NCBI GenBank assembly: GCA_035221665.1
Contig: CM069163.1
Location: 16,554,001-16,618,000, forward strand
Length of the DNA stretch: 64,000 nt
Source: Okamejei kenojei
Lineage: Eukaryota
Direction: 5' to 3'
Both the position numbers and the translations under genes were made by a program. The notes beneath the pieces were generated by a model that ran no database searches, was not told where the DNA came from, and was given only the letters and a program-made list of their open reading frames with translations. Positions within the stretch are counted from its first letter, which is position 1. The number at the start of each line of letters is the position of its first letter. This document shows, piece after piece, positions 3,998 to 53,330 of the stretch.

Positions 3998-4112
3998 ATG
4001 TAAGAAGGAATTGCAAATGCTGGTTTAAACCGAAAAAGACACAAAAAGCTGGAGTAACTCAGCGGGACAGGCAGCATCTCTAGAGAGATCGGGTCGAGAC
4101 CCTTCTTCAGTC
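3998..4112 (-). mobile_element. Penelope-like pLTR fragment with partial hammerhead core
   Basis: Reverse complement reads CTGAAGAagggtctcgacccg followed by the gagatgctgcctgtcccgctgagttactccagc tail; the GAAA segment is deleted. Confidence 0.7.
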
Positions 4113-4439: not shown

Positions 4440-5170
4440 CACTAGAACATTGAACGTAGACAGTATAGCACAGAAACAGGCCATTCGGCCTACAATTTCT
4501 GAACCGAACATGACGCCAAGATAAATTAATCAGCTTTGTCTGCAATGACCCACACCCCTCCATTCCCTGCATACCAGGTGCCCATTTAACAAGCCTCTTA
4601 AACGTCACTATTGAATCCGAGTCCACCACCATCCCTGGTAGCGAGATCCACGTGTAAAAACACCTACCCCTTTAAACTTTACACCTCGTACTAGATATGC
4701 CCTCCGGTCTTTGTCATTTCCACGCTGGGACAAAGGTTCCGATGGTCTACCCCTTCCGTGCCTCTCATTGTACACTGTTCCAAGAAATCTTAAAATAATC
4801 TCAAGGAACAACATCTGATCTCCCAGCTGGACGCGTTACCTTTGTCGGGACTCAGCGCTCTCGGGATTAAAGCATCTTTCACTTCCTCAGTCCCGATTAA
4901 TCTCATACATTCATAAATTCTAGGAGCAGAATTAGGCCATTTGGCCCATCAGGTCTACTCCGCTATTCAATCATGACTGATCTATCTTTCTCTCTCAACC
5001 ACGTGCTCATGCTTTCGCCCCATAACCCCTGACACCCTTATTAATCAAGAATCTGTCAACCCCCGCCTTAAAAATATCAATTGACGGCCTCCACAGCAGT
5101 CTGTGGCAATGAGTTCCACCGATTCACCACCCTGTGACCAAATACATTCCTTCCCATCTCCTTTCTAAAG
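4440..5170 (-). mobile_element. Two CR1-like LINE 3' end fragments
   Basis: gaaacaggccattcggcc... and ggagcagaattaggccatttggccc... are reverse complements of the CR1 tails at 15750-16250 and 43492-43877. Confidence 0.7.
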
Positions 5171-8100
5171 GTAATTCAAATCTATTTGAATCTTCACTCA
5201 GTGCTCTCTCAGCGGACACCAACGCAATTTTTACCTCGGTCACTCTTAGATTGAACCCTATAGCTCTTGCTTGTATTCGCCAGTTTCCGATGGAAATCAT
5301 CAACATTAAAACAGTTATCTCCCCACAGACACGGCTCGTCTTGATGAACATTTCCAATATATAAATGGAATATGGTTTGTGTTCGCTCCTGCTAGGGAAA
5401 CAAGGTAAAAACGAGGTAAAAAGAGACACTTTCATAACTTCAATGTAGTGTAAAATGAAAATATAATATATATTCCTGTCGGACAACGACCAATCTAAAA
5501 CCAAGCATGTCCCCTCTCTCATCTTTTGAATCAGGAATCTTCCACAATCTGTCTCCCCGGTAATTAAGGGGTGCGGGTACCGGTACTCACAGGATCTGAC
5601 CATATTCCTTGAAGGTGCAATCTCTTCGCAAAACTTGGCAGGTACCAGCTACAGAACATCGCCTTTCATTGGCGTGTGGGACGCCAGAGCACGACCCTCA
5701 CAATACAGGCCTCTCATGGTTTGCACGCATGAGACAGGGAATTACAGCACATTCTATGTTTCTATCGATAAACTTTATCTCTGAATAGTTTCAGATTTCT
5801 AGCATTTGCAATATTTGGCTTGCTGCTAACATCCAACACTTTTTGTTTTGATTTCAGAATTGCAAGATTCAGGAGTTTTTTTTGTAATTCCTCGAAAGGA
5901 ATCGAGTTAAAATACATTGATTTTTTGGCGGGAGTGATTCGGAACTGAAGTCTCCCAAATTCATATCATCTTGTTAGAGTTTGCAGCCAGGACTTGTATT
6001 CAAGTAGATTCCCAGGGATTAATTTCCAAACCACATGTAATCTCTTTCAACAGTTTGCCAACATCGTTGCATTTGTGCACAATATTAAAACAGAGAAGTA
6101 ATAAAATAAGGATTTGGAACACATACGAAAATGGCTGAGAAGCGGCAAATGAAGCTTATTAATAAGGATCACAAATGTGAAGTACTACACTAGACACGGG
6201 ACAAAGCCACGTGTCACTTGAAGACCAAGTGAACAGAATTGTTAGAGCAAGTTTCTCAAGGGAACACACTTTTGCAAATATGGGTAGACAAAAATGCTGG
6301 AGAAACTCAGCAGGTGAGGCAGCATCTATGGAGCGAAAGAAATAGGCAACGTTTCGGTTTCTTCAGACGGGGTAGGCCTTTGCTGTAATTCAGTCGCCCG
6401 TGTGTTAGCCTCCCTAAAGGCGCTTAGTATCAGAGCCATGCGTATTCAGCACCATCGGACAGGTGGGTGCGTGTTGTATAGATGGCACCTGTCCGGTTTT
6501 GTTAAGTGATAGAGGGGGCACCCAGCTACTTTACCTGGGTGGTGAGCGAACCAGCGGATTCACCGTGACTACCTCTCGTATTTTGCTGCAAGGCTCCCAT
6601 CAGAAAATAACGGCTGCAATGTTCGGGCGTTCGGGTCAAACTGCACCTCCATTGAGAAGACCAGAATCAATTTATCAAGTTAACAAGATACAAATGATGT
6701 CGTGCGGTGTCGGGGCAATGTTTGAATGAAGGCACGCTCAGCTTGTAACTAGGTGCTAGTGTGGTGGCAGAAAAAACAACTTGTAGAGAAGGCTCTGATG
6801 GGGTCAGTAAATTTGACTTCAATGATAGGATGGAGGGGCTTTTTATTTATAATAGAAATTTCGGGATATTGACATTATTAAGCGCATCTGGAGCAACATT
6901 TCTTTGAAGTATAAAATATTAAGCGGCTTAGTTGCTAAATCCAAAATCTTGCTATAGAATATAGAATAGTATATCGTAGATTAAAAATATTGTTTTTGTC
7001 GGGAAGGACAAAATACGTTGAACGGACAGATGACAATTGGAATGTTTAAACAGACTTAAAATTCCGGCCTCTGCAATCCTACTGTGAGCGTAAAGCGTCT
7101 TCCAATACATTGAATGCTGGGCTCAGAGAGATGGGCGAAATGATCTTCTGGCAGTTTACTTTTCTTAGGTTCTCAGCAAAACAAGACATTAATGGACGTT
7201 TGGAAGCACGCAGTTATATTCCTATCTTGAAATAAATGAAATAGGTTGTTATCTCTTTAAATTATATGACAGAAAACCTTTTAACACCGCCGTTGTTTTA
7301 CTGATCATGTCTGCCTGCTTGTCTCTCTATCCAATTGTATCCAGGTATCTATTTATCGATATTACGACCGTTGGACTGGACTGTCACTCAGTTTATCTGA
7401 CTCGAATCGCCGGTGTAATCTATACGAGTTGTCTGTGTGGAGTATGCATACATTTTCGATTATGACAAAGCAATTCATAATCAGGATATATATAGTTCTA
7501 TTTTCCCCTCTCAGTAATCTGCAGTGACCAGTTTCACGACCCGCACGCATCCTCCGGTCGGAGGGTCACTGGTTTTGAACTAATCATCCGCTCTCGCATC
7601 TCATGTTGTCTTTCGAGACAGAATTTCGCAAGGTCGTTGACCGATCAATTGTGTTCCATTATAAATACCTCTGCTGTATATTTCTGTTCCAGTGATATAA
7701 CCCTGGAAGACAATATTTACGTGTCCAAACAATCGCGGTGCTATCATTATGGCCAGCCATATTTATTTGCTCTCGCTGCCGTCTCTTTCTGTCTTCCGGA
7801 TTCCTGTACCGGTGTTATTGGAATTTCAAATCATAATCATAACCCTTTGCTTCGTCTAATCCTGGTGAATTACGTGAAGTTTTGTGATTTAATTGCAACC
7901 CCGGTGTCCCTGACGCGATATTTTATTTGGGCTGGAAAGTTATTAGATTGCCCATGTGACAGCTTGTACCTCCCCGCTGTTAGAGCGTGGGACTCCATCA
8001 TCATCACAGGAACCAGACATCAACGTCTGTCGTCTGACTAAACAACACTATTCTACATACGAACACATCAAGAAAAGGCACTGTCTTCATTATTTACTGC

Positions 8101-12549: not shown

Positions 12550-12670
12550 TGTAGGAAAGAACTGCAGATGCTGATTTAAACAGAAGATAGACGCAAATTG
12601 CTGGAGTAACTAAGCAGGCTGCCTGTCCTGCTGAGTTACTCCAGCATTTTGTGTCTATCTTCTGTTTCAG
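12550..12670. mobile_element. Inverted (hairpin) Penelope pLTR pair
   Basis: aaacagaagatagacgcaaattgctggagtaactaagcagg and cctgctgagttactccagcattttgtgtctatcttctgttt are near-perfect reverse complements. Confidence 0.8.
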
Positions 12671-29415: not shown

Positions 29416-30777
29416 TCTGTTGCTCAGACATCAGCCTAGATCTCCAAGGTACAATAGTATTCAAAAATTGATAGCTAACATACACAAAGATAAAGAATGG
29501 AAGAGGAGTCACTCAGCCACTCACATGATTCTCCTAAATTGCTGTGATTAAATTTGCACCTAGTTCATTATTGCATTCAGAAAAAATTATCTCTAGAAAA
29601 GTAAAGAATAAGGAAATGTGCAGGACGTACATATCCGACCCAATGTTTTGATTCAACTAGGAAGAAGAGGCTCAGAGGAGATTTAGTTCTGGGTGAGAAC
29701 ATGGTCTGAGAACAAGGGATGTCTGAAGAAGGGTCAAAGATTTAAAGTAGGGCCTGAAAAAAGTTCCTGACCCCTAACATCTTCCGTCCAGTCCCTCCAT
29801 AGATGCTGCCTGACATGCTAAGTTCCTCCAGTTCAAAATTGTGTATTTAGAGCATGAATGATAACCTGCTCTCTCCTGAAAACTGGGAGTACTTACCCAG
29901 GACTGCTTCTACCAATCATCCAGATCTTCATGGCCTACATCTTTTCAGGCATCAAAGGACATAGGAGTCCAATATTTTACTTTTCATAAGAAACAATTTT
30001 TGATGGTTGCCAAGTCCGTTCAGAGTACAATAGATCATAGTCAGTAACGGACAAGCCCTTTAACAGACAGAATTCTATATTTAGATTTGAAAAATGGCTT
30101 TAGATGCCGTTAACCTAGATTTCCGATATGATAGAAAATATATCTATGTGTTTAAAACTTAATTCATACTAATCTAGCAGTCTGAAATTACAAAATCAAA
30201 GCAGATGCAATGGATTCTAAAATATGTCAAGAATAAACAGAGGAAAGGTTGATCAAAGGTTTGTCACAGCTGACAGAAATCTGTTTTACTGAGAGCCTTT
30301 GCGTGACCAAAACTGGCACTCAGTCGATCTCTTTCCAAATAAAGCACCGATCAATGGACAGAGAGGTAAAATGACAAATGTTCCTGCTGTGTGGACTAGT
30401 TCTGGGAAAACAAAAACTGCTTCTTTTGTTAGACCTCGTTCCAGTCAGTTAATGGTGCTGCAATTTGAAGAAACAATGTTGTTAACTTTGGATCAGCTGC
30501 TAGCACTCTCACCCGTGAGTCTGAAAGTTTTCAGTTTAAGTCCCTCTCCAGTGAATTAAGCACAAGAAGTTGACCTGTTGTTCGGTTGACAGAGGTGTGG
30601 CCTTTTAACTGAGATGTTATATTGAGATGTTATATGGAATCCATTTATAACTGTTATACACAACAGGTATTCCTATGTTCCTGTGGAAACAGTGGCTGTA
30701 TTTGAGAATTCATACTGTTGTTCATACCGGTTGGGTTGCAAGGCTGTATAGTTTTCCGAGCCATCGGATGAGATCAT

Positions 30778-31070
30778 AGTTTATTTTAGTTTAGAGATGC
30801 AGTGCGGAAACAGGCCCTTTGGTCCACCGAGTCTGCTCCGACCAGCGATCCCCGTACGTTAACACAATCCTACACACATTGGGGACAATTTACCAAGGGG
30901 ACTTATACCAAGTATACAAACTCAAGCCAATTAATCTACAAACCTGTATGCCTTGGAGTGTAGGAGGAAACCAAAAATCTCGGAGCAAACCCATGCGTTC
31001 ACGGAGAGAACATTCAAACTCCGTATAGACAGCACCCAGAGTCGGGATCAAACCCGGGTCTCTGGTGCTG
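30778..31070 (-). mobile_element. HE1/V-SINE-like SINE
   Basis: tttagtttagagatgcag...gaaacaggccc tail through gggatcaaacccgggtctctggtgctg head. Confidence 0.8.
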
Positions 31071-31071
31071 C

Positions 31072-31617
31072 AAGCACAGGCAAACTGGAAAAACAACACC
31101 TCATATTTCACTTGAATAACTTACAACCCAATGGTGTGAACAACGGTATGAATTCTCGAATTTTGGGTAACTACATAACTCTGCTCCTCTCCCTTCTTCT
31201 CCCACCTAAAACCCCCACTTTCCCCCCTCCACCGTGACCCACCTGGACTCGCAACTATTTTCCCCTCCCCCTCCCCCTCCCCCTCCCCCTACATTCCTTT
31301 CCCTTGCTTCACAATTCACAACCTTCAATCCCTTTGTCTCACATCTTCTGTCTTTTCATCTCCAGCCTTTGTCCAACCATCTGCCTATCAAAAACCCCTC
31401 CTCACCTGTATCAGCTTGTTACCTGCCAAGCTTTGTCCTGCCCCTCATCACTTCCAGCTCTCTCTCCGCCCCCCCCCCCCCCCCGCTACAATCAGTCTGA
31501 AGAAGGGACCTGACCTGAAACTTCCCCTATCCATTTTCTCCAGAGATACTGCCTTATCCGCTGAGTTACTCCAGCACTTTTGTTTATAATCCAGCAACTG
31601 CAGTTCCTTGTTTCTAC
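31072..31617 (+). mobile_element. Penelope-like retroelement 3' end (GIY-YIG C-terminus plus pLTR with degenerate hammerhead)
   Basis: KLEKQHLIFHLNNLQPNGVN resembles the KLEEQHLIFRLG.LQP.G.N C-terminus of Penelope-type endonucleases; C-rich UTR; CTGAAGA...GAAA at 31497-31520; gctgagttactccagc tail. Confidence 0.8.
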
Positions 31618-32214
31618 TCGCTTTCTGCACTCAGGCAGCTGATTTCATTTGTTTTCATTGCGAAACATATCAATAGGCCTGGAGAAGTGTGCTAGCTTGT
31701 TTTGAAGGATGAGAACAAACTTGTGCAAGACCATCTTAAACACTCTTCAGCCCTCCTAGGAATTCACTCAATCCCTTTAAAAGCATAGGAAGGCTCCCGC
31801 TAAGTTTGAAAATTGCCATTGGAACCAGACAGCGAGTGTAAATAGAATACTCCTTGCCTTGTTCCTATAAAGCATTAATACATTGATTTTATGCTGTCTA
31901 AAAGGCTTTATAATCAATGCAATTCTCCTGAAGTCTAGCAAATGTTGCAATGTTAGAAAGGCTACATGTGGTGCCAACCATATAGGTAGAGTGAAGATAA
32001 TTAGATAATTCCTCAGCTCTGAGCAGCTGCCTAAGAAGAAAACTATTCCACACAAACTGCATTTTTTCTAGAGAAATTACCTGTCTTTCATTAGGAGGTT
32101 GCTACAAATTGTATTTCTTCTGCTCTTTAAAACAACTTTGTTTTCTGGGAAAACTAAATTGGTTTGCTGCGGATCCAACTCAAGGCTGAATGGTGTCATC
32201 AACTCACTGTGGGG

Positions 32215-37265: not shown

Positions 37266-37477
37266 GGCCAAAGTCCTGGCACACTAGATTATCAGTTTGA
37301 TTGTAACAACAGTAAAACCTGTTATTGTGAATGGGGGTTAAACATATTTGCTAATAAATAGTAACTATTTCTTTGGGATAATAAAATGCGATCTTTTGAT
37401 TAGACTTCAGAGAACAAATGGAGACTGAGCTGATTGGTTCATTTCAATAGTACTACAGATAGTATGTGCTATGTACA

Positions 37478-37650
37478 GGAAAGAACTGCAGATGCTGGTT
37501 TAAATGGAAGGTAGACTCAAATTGCTGGAGTAACTCAGCAGGGCAGGCAGCATCTCTGGAAAGAAGGAATGTGCGACGTTTCGGACAGAGACCCTTCTCT
37601 CCAGAGATGCTGCCTGTTCCGCTGAGCTACTCCAGCATTTTGTGTCCACC
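37478..37650. mobile_element. Penelope-derived inverted pLTR insertion flanked by a 15-bp TSD
   Basis: tatgtgctatgtaca at 37463-37477 and 37651-37665; internal inverted repeat of about 50 bp. Confidence 0.85.
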
Positions 37651-38289
37651 TATGTGCTATGTACATATGTACTATGGTGCTATGGTAAGAGATTTAGGAC
37701 TGTGGTTCTATGGTAAACGATTTTGGAGATTGTTTTCTCCCCATGGGGAACTTGGAGTCAGGAACGCACTGCCGGAGGGGGTCATGTGGCAGGATCTCTC
37801 ACATTTAAGAAGTATTTAGATGGGCACCAATTACTAAGGCATGGAAAACTAGGGATCAAATGCTAATGAATGGGAATAATATGTGGGCGTTGGTGGTCAG
37901 CAAGATTTTGGTTCTGAAATGTTTGCCTCTATAACACACCCAGAAATGTGATCTGAGGTTTCGCCCCGTGGTTTTGCTCAGGTACAGACAAACTACAATT
38001 GCATTCCAAATTCAGACTCCCATCTTGATAATATCACCATGAACGTCAAGGACATTACATCAGAGAGGGCTCTTAATCACAATTAATCATGTCTGGAGGA
38101 TGCCCATCCACATGAAAGGAATATTCGGAGAGTGTCTGTCTGACCTACTGAACATTTCCAACATTTTCTTTTTTGTTTTTGTAGATATGCCGGTGTTTAT
38201 TCTCACCTCCAATGTACAACAGAATAATGTAGATTAGCATTTGCCACTTGTCTCTGTGACACTATCAGTAAAACATGTCCAGGCTGCTG

Positions 38290-38423
38290 TCTCTCCAGTA
38301 TGCGCGCAAGGAACCCTGGGAGTTGTAGTTCGCGCAGCCACGTCGTCCAATTATTCCGCTCGACAAAGCTCCGTCATCAGCCTGCGCAGGAGCCGTCTCT
38401 AGGCAGCGGGGGAAATGGCGGAC
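38290..38423 (+). promoter_or_regulatory. MED27 core promoter / small CpG island
   Basis: TGCGCGCA (38301-38308, NRF1-like); TGGGAGTTGTAGT (38317-38329), which is the ACTACAnnTCCCA ZNF143/THAP11 motif on the minus strand; CGTCA half-CRE; gcctgcgca; AAATGGCGG YY1-like motif spanning the ATG; no TATA box. Confidence 0.8.
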
Positions 38424-38617
38424 TCTTTGAGTGTTGGGATCAATCTGGATGCTTTTGCTCACGCGATTAACGCTATTCAACAACTTCGCTCCAGTGTCAC
38501 CCGCGTTTTTGACACTCTCAAGGATGGGATGAAGAACAAAGAGACTTTGGAAGGCAGGGAGAAAGCATTCATCAGTGACTTTCAGGACAACCTGCATGCT
38601 GTCAACAGGGATCTGAA
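38415..38617 (+). CDS. MED27: Mediator complex subunit 27, coding exon 1
   Basis: MADSLSVGINLDAFAHAINAIQQLRSSVTRVFDTLKDGMKNKETLEGREKAFISDFQDNLHAVNRDL matches the MED27 N-terminus; 203 nt, phase-2 donor AA|GTAAGT. Confidence 0.96.
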
Positions 38618-40140: not shown

Positions 40141-40285
40141 TGAGTTGGAACGTTTGAGTAACTTGGTGGGACGACCATCGGAGAGTCACCCACTCCATAA
40201 CAGTGGCTTGTTGAGTCTTGATCCAGTGCAGGATAAAACTCCCCTCTACAGCCAACTTTTGCAGGCTTACAAATGGTCTAACAAG
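40141..40285 (+). CDS. MED27: Mediator complex subunit 27, coding exon 2 (missed by the ORF track)
   Basis: Acceptor tgattttcAG| completes codon AAT (N), then ELERLSNLVGRPSESHPLHNSGLLSLDPVQDKTPLYSQLLQAYKWSNK; donor AAG|GTAGGT; 145 nt, in frame with exon 1. Confidence 0.96.
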
Positions 40286-48258: not shown

Positions 48259-50178
48259 TTAACTTCCGTAATCATTTTTTTCACACTTTGTACATTGGGA
48301 TTGGAAACACAGTTTAAAAAGTTGCTATTGCCCCCAAAGTCATGAGCAAGGATACGCTAGATGAGGGGAAAGGCGTAATAGGACATGCAATTGCATAAAG
48401 TATTGTGAGAGCAAGTTGGTGTGTGGTATGTATGCATACCTGCACTGCAATATACCTCCTCCAGTGTTATTACTTCTATTTTCAAGCACTTTATATTACG
48501 CTGCATATAGTTTTCTCTGTTGCTGAATGAGCAATAAATCAACCAACATTACCATTTAGTGCACAGTATTACATGTTAACGAGTTGCAGTGCAAAACCAC
48601 TTTGGCTGATGAGCAGTACAAACATTTTTCAATCAACAGCAGAATATATAGGTGGGGGAAAATCAATGGAGCGAATATTCGTTTCATCATGCAGACATTT
48701 TTGATAATTTGGAATAATATTCACCTTGGGATTCTTTTTGGCTTTTCATTAGAGACTGTTATCATTACACCATAGTACAATCACAGCTTCAGCTAGGTTA
48801 ACAGTCAACCATTTTCTCAAGCTGAAAGCTGTTAATATTAACTTTCTAATTTTTATTAAATTGCTCTTCCTAATAACCTTGTTTCCAGGTCAGATGCTTT
48901 CTTCTTTTCGTTGGTATTAATTTGTGTTGATGTTTGAAAGCACTTTGCCCAGCAAAGTCTTTAATTTTTAATTTCAGCCCAGCATGGCTTGCCTTATATA
49001 TATTTGATGAGCTGAGATAAGGGCATTTCCCCCTCTCTGATTGTTCACATGTTAGTGAACACATGAGTAAATGCACAAAACCTTGCTCAGAAATTATTCA
49101 TGTGTGGTCTAAAGCTTCCTGTTCTTGAGCAGTGAAATCGAGTTTATTGAGTCAGCCCAGAAGGACACATTCCAAGGACACATTTAATTTGGCTGCTCTT
49201 CTTCCTGTTGAAAAGCACTAAGATTTTTAAAGGAGAAATTGGATATCGTGCTTCCAACAGGGAATTTATGTTCAAAATATACAAGCTAAATATGGGAATG
49301 ACCATCATTGGCTGGACCATGGGAAGTTGAAGTGGCGGGGGAGTATGTTGGTAGAGGGAGGTTGGCGTGAGTGGTATGTTGCTATGTCGGTGTCAACACC
49401 AAAATAACCTTTATTTGGTGTGTGTTTGTTACATCGGCAGTAAGTGTTAGTTGAAATTTATTTTAAAATTGCAGATGCTGAAAATCTGAAATAAAGTGAG
49501 GTCAGGTAGCATTTTCATCAGATCTCGGACCCTTTATCAGAAATGAAAAATGAGAAAACATGTTAGTTTTAAAATGCAGAGAGGGTGGAGCAGGAGTGGA
49601 TATAGCAAAGGGAATATATGATGGTGCCAGGGTGCTGAGGTCCTGTTGTTTAAGCGATTGTTTGGTTAATGGACTATTGAAGGAAGTTAGAAAAAGAAAA
49701 CATTAAGAAATTTAGTTTGCAGATGCTGATAAACCTGAAGCCAAGAAGAATGCCCCTACAAATTAGGAGAAGGGAAATTAATATTGCAGTTGGATAATGT
49801 TATAGCAGAACTGGCCAGTTTTGATGGAAACAGAAAGTATATTATTTGAAATTGCAACGAGTCCAGAAGGAAGATGATGTGCTGCTCCTCAAGCTTGCAC
49901 CTTGAGTTGGACTGAAGCATGGACGTATCCTACAAAAAAAGTCAACTACCCACAGTTGATTTGGACAAAGTGAATGGAATTTAAGAAGTTATTCAGTCAG
50001 GTGAATAATGGAGCTGAATTGTTTGCCCTCTGCTCAAAACAAAAGAAGAGGACCCTCCACCCATATCTGGCTTGATTGGATTGAAAGTATGGAGTCAATT
50101 TGGAAGCAATAAGTTTGATGGGGCAAGAGCATGTTGTGGCAATGGGTTTGCTTATTAGCACTCATACTGGTTTAACTG

Positions 50179-50314
50179 GGGTGGAAGATTGCAACCTTCA
50201 CGTGGTCCCCCTGTTTTGACGAATGCAATCAAATAAGATCAAATACAACAAATTGTCCTACAACTTTAGGCTGTGCACACCATACGCAAGAAGAAGAAGA
50301 AGAAGAAGAAGAAG
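50179..50314 (+). mobile_element. 136-bp (AAG)n-tailed retroposon with a 13-bp TSD
   Basis: actggtttaactg at 50166-50178 and 50315-50327 flank the element, which ends in an aag triplet run. Confidence 0.9.
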
Positions 50315-50583
50315 ACTGGTTTAACTGTTGTTTGTCCGATGCTAGTATAGCAGTAACAATGGAGAGCTTGAACTTAGTGGGGGTAGATATAGATCCTGAG
50401 ACACCAGTAGAGCATAACAGTTACATTTATAAAAAATAATTGTAAAATAGGTTATCTATTCCCAGTGGTATGTTGGCACCTTGGTGAATCAGTTGAACCA
50501 AAGGCCAATAACATTTTAAAAGATATACCTGATATAAGGGGTTTGGCTATCTGAAGTTGGGAAATCACAGATCATTCAATCCA

Positions 50584-50738
50584 AATCAGTCTGAAGAAGC
50601 GTCTCGACCCAAAACATAACCCAATCCTTTTCTTAAGAGATGCTGTCTGACCTGCTAAGTTACTCCAGCTTTTTGTGTCAATCTTCATACAATTCTTACA
50701 CATTTATACAGTATAAATCAGCATCTGCATTTCCTTGA
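50584..50738 (+). mobile_element. Penelope pLTR fragment with mutated hammerhead core
   Basis: agtCTGAAGAagcgtctcgacccAAAAcat (GAAA lost), then the pLTR tail. Confidence 0.75.
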
Positions 50739-51297
50739 AATTAGAAATTGTGTATAGATTAGCTTTTCTTGGCTATTTGTTTATTAATGGAATGTATTCA
50801 ACTTTTTAAACTATCTTGTAGATGGTGCAATATATTAATTAAATTATATTAAGAGATTGCAAAAATAAAGTTGAGTTGTTGTGCAGTGGGTTACGGTTCT
50901 ATACAGTTCATTGGTAATAATGCCTTTGTGAGTGAAAATGTATGTGAATGGTGCCAATGTCACTGTTGCAGTTGAATCTCATACCCTTTACTGCCATCAT
51001 TTTATATTACTCCTATCTCCCTTGTGTTTTCTAGTCAAGTGAGTTCCAAATTCTAGCCACTCTCCAGGGTAAGAGGTTTCTCCTGAATTTCATTTTGAAT
51101 TTATTGATTAGTGATTCCCATAATGAATCAACCATTTTAGAATTTTAAAGGTCTTATCCAGGTCATCCCACATTTTTTTTCCAGAGAAAGGAGTCAATGC
51201 ATCTTCAGTCGTTTCTGACAAGTGTAACTCTGTGTTCTTACATTTGTAAATATTTATGCATTATTTCCAGTGCTGCTCCATACTTTACATAATAAAA

Positions 51298-51423
51298 GGG
51301 TACACAAAAAGCTGGAGAAACTCAGCGGGTGCAGCAGCATCTAAGGAGCGAAGGAGATAGGCGACGTTTCGGGTCGAGACCCTTCTTCAGACCGACGTTT
51401 CGGGTCGAGACCCTTCTTCAGAC
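51298..51423 (-). mobile_element. 126-bp Penelope-derived insertion with a 12-bp TSD
   Basis: tacataataaaa at 51286-51297 and 51424-51435; inserted into an old minus-strand CR1 remnant. Confidence 0.88.
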
Positions 51424-51426
51424 TAC
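51358..51426 (-). ncRNA. Tandem pair of minimal type-I hammerhead ribozyme motifs
   Basis: Minus strand: gtCTGAAGA-a-GGGT(CTCG)ACCC-GAAA-CGTC, repeated exactly with a 31-nt period (51362-51392 and 51393-51423). Activity is not shown. Confidence 0.65.
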
Positions 51427-52466
51427 ATAATAAAATACTGCTAACTGTACTCTGGTGTGGGTTTATAAGGTTAACATAAGGACTTTTTTTGAAATGTGAC
51501 CTCTCCAGAAATGAATCCCATTCCAATATTCCATTGCTTTTCCTTATTTTGAAACAGAATGCAATGACCTCATTCAGTTCATCAAAGTTTGTAGTTTTAC
51601 CTTTGCCAATTAAGTGATGGATGAACTGGCCATTAATATTTTCCTAATCTTTGTCAATATACTTCTCTTTCTCATACTGCATGTGCATTGAAGACCTAGT
51701 CTTGATGCAATTTAAATGTGCCTTCAGATCTGTTCAGAACATTTGACATTTACCTGCAAATTCCTGGCCTGATTTCTTGAGTTATTGTTGATGGGTCACA
51801 ATCAATTAATGTTACAGCATATAAGGGAAGAGCTGAAAGTGCCAATAATTGAATGTTTTATTAGTTTCCAAAATAATGATATTGAAAAAAGCCACTTGAG
51901 AGGGCTCCTTTTCCGCACGATTTTTGTTTCGACTTTTAAAAATGTTGTCCTTATAGAAACTTTCTGTGCAAATGTATTGTTTGAAATTGTCTTTGGACTC
52001 TTTTATCAAACTAAGTTAGTTGATTACATGCTGTTTTCTTGATGTTTAAGTGGTTGTCTCCTGAAAGGAACACCAATCATATAATTTAATTCCCATCTCT
52101 AATGGTCAAGTGCCACGCTTTAAATGAAACATTAATGCAGCAGTAAAGCAAACGGATTAAAATTTGTTGTCATCATTATTGGCAGAATTGCATCAATTGG
52201 CATTGTTCTATTTGTTGTACTTCTAACTTTGTTATTTGTTTTATACCAGGAAGTACTAACATAGTGGTAGAATGATATTTTTTGTTGTTGTTCAAAATTG
52301 GATTTTATATTTTGGGAAAATGGGATGTACAGTTGCATATCAGTTCAACGATTGAAATGGAGCTGTAGAAGACTCCAAACTCATCAAATTTGCACAACAG
52401 AGTCCGAGACATTGGTTATGGCAAATCAGCATTCCAATGAATTATTAGAAAATAAGGCCTCCTCAG

Positions 52467-53040
52467 GTCTCTGCCCCTCTCTCTCTGTCTCTGCCCCTCT
52501 CTCTCTGTCTCTGCCCCTCTCTCTCTGTCTCTGCCCCTCTCTCTCTGTCTCTGCCCCTCTCTCTCTGTCTCAGCCCCTCTCTCTCTGTCCTCAGCCCCTC
52601 TCTCTGTCTCTGCCCCTCTCTCTCTGTCTCTGCCCCTCTCTCTGTCTCTGCCCCTCTCTCTCTGTCTCTGCCCCTCTCTCTCTGTCTCTGCCCCTCTCTC
52701 TCTGTCTCTGCCTCTCTGTCTCTGCCCTCTCTCTCTGTCTCTGCCCCTGCCTCTCTCTGTCTCTGTCTCTGCCCCTGCCTCTCTCTCTCCCTGTCTCTGC
52801 CCCTGCCTCTCTCTGTCTCTCTCTCTGCCCCTGCCTCTCTCTCTCCGTCTCTGCCCCTGCCTCTCTCTCTCCGTGTCTCTGCCCCTGCCTCTCTCTCTCT
52901 CCCTTTCTCTGCCCTGCCCTCTCTCTCCCTGTCTCTGCCCCTGCCTCTCTCTCCCCTGTCTCTGCCCCTGCCTTCTCTCTCTATCCCTGTCTCTGCCCCT
53001 GCCTCTCTCTCTCTCCTGTTCTCTGCCCCTGCCTCCCTCA
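52467..53040 (+). repeat. Polypyrimidine minisatellite (about 20-bp gtctctgcccctctctctct unit)
   Basis: Direct reading; runs into the gap. Confidence 0.95.
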
Positions 53041-53041
53041 T

Positions 53042-53330
53042 NNNNNNNNNNNNNNNNNNNNNNNNNNNNNNNNNNNNNNNNNNNNNNNNNNNNNNNNNNN
53101 NNNNNNNNNNNNNNNNNNNNNNNNNNNNNNNNNNNNNNNNNNNNNNNNNNNNNNNNNNNNNNNNNNNNNNNNNNNNNNNNNNNNNNNNNNNNNNNNNNNN
53201 NNNNNNNNNNNNNNNNNNNNNNNNNNNNNNNNNNNNNNNNNNNNNNNNNNNNNNNNNNNNNNNNNNNNNNNNNNNNNNNNNNNNNNNNNNNNNNNNNNNN
53301 NNNNNNNNNNNNNNNNNNNNNNNNNNNNNN
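53042..53330. other. Assembly gap (N run)
   Basis: Run of n characters. Confidence 1.

Follow-up and report, generated by a model that had tools for sequence, protein, structure and literature searches.

This locus raises the question of whether a hammerhead ribozyme core that stands twice in immediate succession, in a short insert within MED27, constitutes a self-cleaving RNA. An initial annotation of the window (the whole 64-kb stretch of DNA that was analysed) had proposed that the duplication yields a self-sufficient unit that cleaves in cis. We read the locus as a real, young insertion in which the tail of a Penelope-like element (PLE) carries its minimal hammerhead twice, and we consider it probable that the pair is inert. 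The doubling was likely caused by a recurrent copying slip, and the predicted inability to complete a working self-cutting RNA suggests that the insert is likely ordinary retroelement debris.

The insertion site in MED27

The insert and the neighbouring exons comprise the following features.

38415..38617, plus strand: MED27 coding exon 1 (PDB MED27 match, E 6e-30)
about 40141-40285, plus strand: MED27 coding exon 2 (PDB MED27 match, E 4e-26)
51286..51297, plus strand: target-site duplication copy 1, 12 bp, AT-rich (exact repeat; organisms B and D have the empty site with only one copy)
51298..51361, minus strand: 3' body of the PLE terminal repeat, 64 nt, 3' of the hammerhead (alignment with other window copies)
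51362..51392, minus strand: hammerhead unit 2 (core starts at 51390; would-be cleavage after 51363)
51393..51423, minus strand: hammerhead unit 1, an exact copy, at the 5' end of the insert (core starts at 51421; would-be cleavage after 51394)
51424..51435, plus strand: target-site duplication copy 2 (exact repeat and empty sites)

The exact 31-nt direct repeat (51362-51392 and 51393-51423, spanning 51362-51423) is flanked by an exact 12-nt repeat (51286-51297 and 51424-51435) that encloses 126 bp. In organisms B and D, one contig each joined 51285 directly to 51424, the insert and one repeat copy being absent (records 24 and 9). These empty sites prove that the 12-bp repeat is a target-site duplication (TSD), a call independent of the chance control, in which 18 of 2000 random window pairs shared a word of at least 12 letters. 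Flank substitutions in the empty-site species B and D numbered 21/762 and 34/729 (2.8% and 4.7%), and both insertion junctions were present in both organism A individuals sampled (records 1, 8, 16 and 23, among the matches listed, a scope that leaves room for an empty allele in organism A). The empty site in two related species, together with the low flank divergence, indicated that the insertion is real and young, and it postdates the split from those two species. TSD copy 2 (51424..51435) also forms the host-derived 5' side of helix I, and the minus-strand insert ends at 51298..51361 without the optional 30-40 nt tail.

The insert lies downstream of MED27 exon 2, with the hammerhead strand antisense to MED27. 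The minus-strand duplication and the TSD around a 126-bp insert were as first annotated, and the placement antisense in MED27 intron 2 was borne out as far as exons 1 and 2, both on the plus strand; the intron number is provisional and rests on the finding of no exon-3 motif in the 64-kb window. A 289-base N gap at 53042-53330 adjoins a CT-rich tandem array.

The Penelope-like element family

The insert is the 5'-truncated end of a very abundant PLE family of a cartilaginous fish. A profile search of the window returned 22 matches that cover 1,732 bases at 19 places; the reversed window gave none, and the profile had been built from 11 of those window copies. Across four runs, 57,128-75,980 contigs per run aligned on a 901-base stretch with depth concentrated on the insert, summed contig depth not being treated as copy number. 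Most of the aligned family copies start within a few bases of the hammerhead core. Two other window loci document the origin and layout of the family.

31079..31625, plus strand: longer family copy that shows the PLE origin (C-terminal endonuclease remnant, pyrimidine-rich 3' region, decayed hammerhead and tail)
37463..37665, both orientations: two family copies in inverted arrangement, just one arm of which bears a tail, with a 15-bp TSD (alignment and repeat search)

The copy at 31492 is preceded by the pyrimidine-rich region and a 30-codon endonuclease remnant. The link to the endonuclease end runs through this sister copy (31079-31586) and not through the insert itself. A profile made from two remnants (the one upstream of the 31492 copy and an older one at 49850-49915) retrieved 21 proteins at E<=0.001. 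Nineteen of these were non-repetitive and shared the remnant's motif, and P0002 and P0011 were dropped as repetitive matches. Some of the 19 also carried, by eye, GIY-YIG-like, RT-like or cysteine-linker stretches; the motif was likewise read by eye, and Pfam named no GIY-YIG, RT or linker family on the retrieved proteins. The cysteine linker seen in the family's relatives (P0008, by eye) is suggestive of the Neptune clade. Seven retrieved proteins were looked up and proved to be five whale-shark gene models, one skate model and one unnamed entry; the search back against the window is partly circular. The host is accordingly a cartilaginous fish, probably a skate or ray. One retrieved protein, the skate gene model P0017 for neuromedin-U receptor 1 (XP_078266213.1), has a PLE endonuclease remnant at its end, through either exonisation or an annotation error.

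A word-indexed protein search with the endonuclease remnant gave no match, the ESM Atlas search no usable match, and Pfam on 6 window pieces nothing relevant. The unit pattern had 0 matches in metagenome, viral and prokaryote collections. Five loci obtained with a looser junction pattern resembled bacterial coding DNA and had no family-profile match, and were therefore attributed to chance.

The layout of the copies is also that of a PLE. Published PLE insertions show an inverted partner, a one-sided tail and a TSD (PMC8557442, PMC3846280), with TSD examples of 8-10 bp (PMC3846280). The pair at 37.5 kb matches this layout, which supports the PLE origin. The copies at 37.5 kb and 12.6 kb display 5' truncation, inverted or partial-tandem partners and the optional 30-40 nt tail, opposite-strand and back-going contig joints fit the same layout, and the 12-bp TSD of the insert, with its empty sites, falls within the range of about 8-15 bp at AT-rich targets.

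Further family remnants occur throughout the window. A 28-nt imperfect tandem (37671-37727) follows the inverted pair at 37463-37665, and a second, shorter inverted pair lies at 12565-12665. The 5'-truncated PLE near 31 kb (locus 30700-31625) has an inverted piece of the ORF end at 30700-30742, set apart by another repeat, at about 30780-31075, which resembles a later insertion. An older PLE remnant within the MED27 intron (49480-49930, minus strand) retains an endonuclease end and a decayed hammerhead-like stretch, and a weak third endonuclease-end remnant lies at 4743-4856 (plus strand, E 0.001). At about 29720-29850 (plus strand) a family copy has, some 33 nt upstream, 15 additional nt from the 5' half of the hammerhead, which makes another partial tandem, and a near-perfect 25-nt triple repeat (381-456) immediately precedes a truncated family copy. 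In close relatives of the insert, at 6282-6370 and 4010-4112 (minus strand), 9-17 nt are deleted within the hammerhead or right behind it, indicating that this region is often rearranged.

Hammerhead cores and predicted folds of the tandem

Each minus-strand unit reads CUGAAGA-A, a stem II of GGGU/ACCC with the loop CUCG, and GAAA-C-G-U-C; both have a 4-bp stem II and a GUC site and lack a helix III. A scan of the 64 kb with the published core of the minimal hammerhead (min-HHR) found 3 cores, 2 of which are these units, compared with 0.1 per shuffled window (60 dinucleotide shuffles of the window). Both units contain the core boxes, a stem II within the 3-7 bp range, the palindromic 15.2/16.2 positions and an NUH site. 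Of all sites in the window, unit 2 alone matches the published descriptor in full, thanks to a helix I of 3 possible pairs (U.G, G-C, G-C) supplied by the duplication, the third pair coming from the junction base, and this could help a dimer in trans. Helix I is 1 bp in unit 1 and 2 bp in the hybrid core that would form in cis. Non-LTR retrozymes are defined by at least two consecutive complete hammerheads; here two cores are consecutive and only unit 2 passes the full descriptor. The Rfam scan of 50000-53000 returned no hammerhead family and 2 chance matches at E>1. The initial annotation had correctly recognised the two cores (CUGANGA, GAAA, 4-bp stem II and GUC site), their minimal type-I architecture and their Penelope origin, to which the family copy with its endonuclease remnant and the PLE insertion layout attest. 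Its caution over a weak stem I was likewise apt.

The gap from site 1 to core 2 is 3 nt. In the core for site 1, helix I would have to join the base after C17 of unit 1 to the base before CUGA of unit 2, and the single base between positions 1.1 and 2.1 makes this helix impossible in cis. The core for site 2 would combine the boxes of unit 1 with a 4-bp ACGU/ACGU stem III that spans a loop of 27 nt. Its helix I consists of U.G and G-C followed by mismatches. In constrained partition functions, the probability of the active site-2 fold was 4.7e-8 to 4.5e-10 depending on flank length (5/5 constructs). The active fold of the natural tandem lay 11.3 kcal/mol above the ensemble, compared with 12.0 kcal/mol for two monomers in trans (without a concentration term), which is about the same. 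The value was also 11.3 kcal/mol for a whole-element tandem, and the family-type context was no better (13.6-16.0 kcal/mol).

Engineered controls located the deficit. With cross-pairing removed (control B), the active fold still lay 10.9 kcal/mol above the ensemble; a hairpin stem III brought this to 7.0 kcal/mol, and the well-formed control, with the engineered stem III and a 5-bp helix I, to 1.5 kcal/mol. The last value indicated that the energy model accepts a proper hammerhead, and the series as a whole that the main deficits lie in the weakness of helix I and the size of the stem III loop. In the lowest-energy fold, the two stem-II regions paired together as a 10-bp duplex, which had a probability of 0.26-0.86 in the ensembles of 5/5 minus-strand pieces and forms once the stem II of unit 2 is made. 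Cross-copy pairing alone was ruled out as the cause of the predicted loss of activity, given the 10.9 kcal/mol that remain without this duplex. The nearest-neighbour model has no tertiary, Mg2+ or protein terms, and a PLE hammerhead of Anolis depends on protein, which leaves room for assisted cleavage.

These results indicated that cis self-cleavage of the pair is predicted not to occur: the two cores did not both form helices I, II and III in one molecule, as a cis double hammerhead would. The proposal that the two ACGU palindromes pair to give a self-sufficient ribozyme of roughly 70 nt that cleaves site 2 is thus very doubtful. In its favour, topology permits a 4-bp stem III in cis, cleavage as an intramolecular dimer is established for type-I hammerheads in tandem, and min-HHR dimer constructs cleaved weakly (PMC4209133). 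The published dimer was weak, however, despite full helices I and a 20-nt linker (PMC4209133), and 8/9 Xenopus dimer elements did not cleave (10.64898/2026.07.22.740005), whereas here site 1 has no helix I, the site-2 core has only U.G and G-C before mismatches, and the probability of the active fold was at most 5e-8 at all five construct lengths. The motif is, moreover, antisense to MED27. In the folding model, the motif behaves like a min-HHR that requires a partner.

Origin of the tandem and comparison with known systems

The tandem is not confined to this locus. An alternative base at junction position 51393, with 31 letters to the nearer piece end, was found in all 4 runs; the 31-letter column was read as a span after calibration on three single-contig rows (50981, 51201 and 51454), and it implies that each run contains at least one contig whose alignment covers both units. 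Contigs that span both units with a changed junction base indicate that the same tandem exists at other loci, and this recurrent form, with one differing junction base, was also found in both species that have the empty site here. The initial annotation had noted neither this recurrence nor the great abundance of the repeat. The alternative junction base was shown by 108-117 contigs per run, many of which may extend only a few letters. Other loci also showed inversions in head-to-head arrangement, with their centres a short way upstream of the hammerhead (two main rows, each run having 16-34 contigs), as well as head-to-tail tandems of the whole unit (2-21 contigs in each run). These whole-unit tandems are more natural candidates for cis dimers than the 31-nt tandem.

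In the family, one 3-nt word occurs both in the native upstream sequence and at the unit end, at a distance of exactly 31 nt, and could readily cause slippage. The insert locus itself lacks such microhomology, and its duplication begins right at the 5' junction, which suggests that the tandem probably came with the insertion. Fourteen mapped joints ended 6-67 nt past the cleavage site (4 back-going joints among 15 of 66 rows listed and 10 from 12 of 205 rows listed, the latter set judged back-going from coordinates; one duplicate and one core-less row were dropped). This spread indicated that partial tandems form a continuum in the family, and a joint exactly at the cleavage site would match the reference and so cannot appear in such joint listings. 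Two skip joints ending at the cleavage site were rejected as a cleavage signature, since a short microhomology in a family variant probably explains them.

An assembly error, with a true insert that holds one unit, is highly improbable. The number 31 is a common assembly word length, the window contains the 289-N gap, and none of the 32 pieces listed (249,214 others being outside the listing) carries the locus's own junction 51392/51393 with the reference base; yet the tandem with one base changed is present in read-derived contigs of all 4 runs, and among the 10 perfect tandem repeats listed in the window, with periods of 13-31, only this one has a period of 30-31. It is unlikely that the junction instead records ribozyme chemistry, in which an RNA self-cleaved at C17 was ligated to, or reverse-transcribed by a jump onto, another copy that starts just upstream of the core, giving rise to a 31-nt retrozyme-like subfamily. 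The junction lies at the cleavage site or one base past it, such that the upstream unit ends at the site plus 0-1 base, and a slip does not require this placement; the 31-nt period recurs at other loci in three species, helix I of the folded motif would bring both breakpoints side by side, some partial-tandem joints have the depth of several single-copy units, and contigs built from 31-letter words cannot separate dimers from longer 31-nt arrays. Against this, the family form requires no catalysis, given the 3-nt microhomology at a distance of 31 nt, and the 14 other joints end away from the site, although joints on it would not be listed. Internal sites of an array would also lack helix I (predicted trimer ddG 16-22), and PMC11167929 records no RNA ends at the cleavage site for the Anolis element.

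Under the preferred reading, a young PLE tail with a slipped tandem, target-primed reverse transcription would have begun at the element's 3' end and halted just upstream of the hammerhead core, where many family copies stop. The tandem may have been carried in from a source copy in which slippage at the 3-nt microhomology of the family had already taken place; alternatively, a reverse transcriptase jump may have made it during insertion. If the insert is transcribed, the quasi-palindromic stem-II regions of both units are predicted to pair mutually. This would leave a single minimal hammerhead, its stem II lengthened, which would still depend on a trans partner and probably also on the element's protein. 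So read, the insert matters little, being a single young copy, on the non-coding strand of the intron, from a huge repeat family.

Two points about the family are of some value to specialists. Its minimal hammerhead, in a cartilaginous fish, was absent from the literature searched, and no paper there described a 31-nt core-only tandem (most subscription papers and Repbase lay outside the search). Tandem junctions of a large family, set against the cleavage site, offer a purely computational test of whether minimal PLE hammerheads cleave in vivo. It is improbable that a skate/ray Penelope family of the order of 10^5 copies spawned a 31-nt core-only tandem from self-cleaved RNA that now spreads as a subfamily, and similarly improbable that ligation or a reverse transcriptase jump across helix I placed its junction at the cleavage site. 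If true, the core-only tandem would be smaller than any retrozyme-like unit described and would document in the genome that minimal PLE hammerheads cleave in vivo.

Tandem minimal PLE hammerheads are already published, axolotl PLEs among them (PMC7229834). The closest system is the min-HHR of the pseudo-LTRs of metazoan PLEs (Cervera & de la Pena 2014, PMC4209133), for which dimer action was proposed, the monomer being inactive and dimer activity low. The family of the insert shares with it CUGANGA plus one extra base, G10.1-C11.1, stem II, GAAA, the palindromic 15.2/16.2 positions and the lack of helix III, along with thousands of solo truncated copies, the proposed dimer action and a low activity, here predicted. 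It differs in a helix I of only 2 bp before mismatches, under the paper's 3-bp descriptor, and in a core spacing of 3 nt as opposed to 20 nt to 3 kb; the alignment and supplement of PMC4209133 contain no shark or skate entry.

Animal non-LTR retrozymes likewise consist of two consecutive type-I hammerhead units from PLE terminal repeats (PMC7229834; 10.64898/2026.07.22.740005). Li, Clavereau & Pollet (2026, 10.64898/2026.07.22.740005) described such PLE-repeat tandems of 51-972 bp, found in the one chondrichthyan sampled, and 1/9 dimers was active. In contrast, the unit here is 31 nt and thus below that range, only the core is repeated and not the whole unit, helix I is incomplete, and the tandem is known from DNA sequence.

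The Poseidon element PAc of Anolis carolinensis (Frangieh et al. 2024, PMC11167929) resembles the family of the insert in a hammerhead about 100-120 nt upstream of the reverse-transcription start, an optional 30-40 nt tail and an AT-rich target. Its hammerhead cleaves only with protein, and cleavage is dispensable for insertion in vitro; PAc is autonomous and biochemically tested, whereas the insert is a non-coding fragment. The double hammerheads of newt satellite 2 and ASBVd offer a parallel, in that pairing between two palindromes of the same molecule rescues an unstable helix III (PMC6155905), but they possess full helices I and long spacers, whereas in the MED27 insert one core is unable to form helix I.
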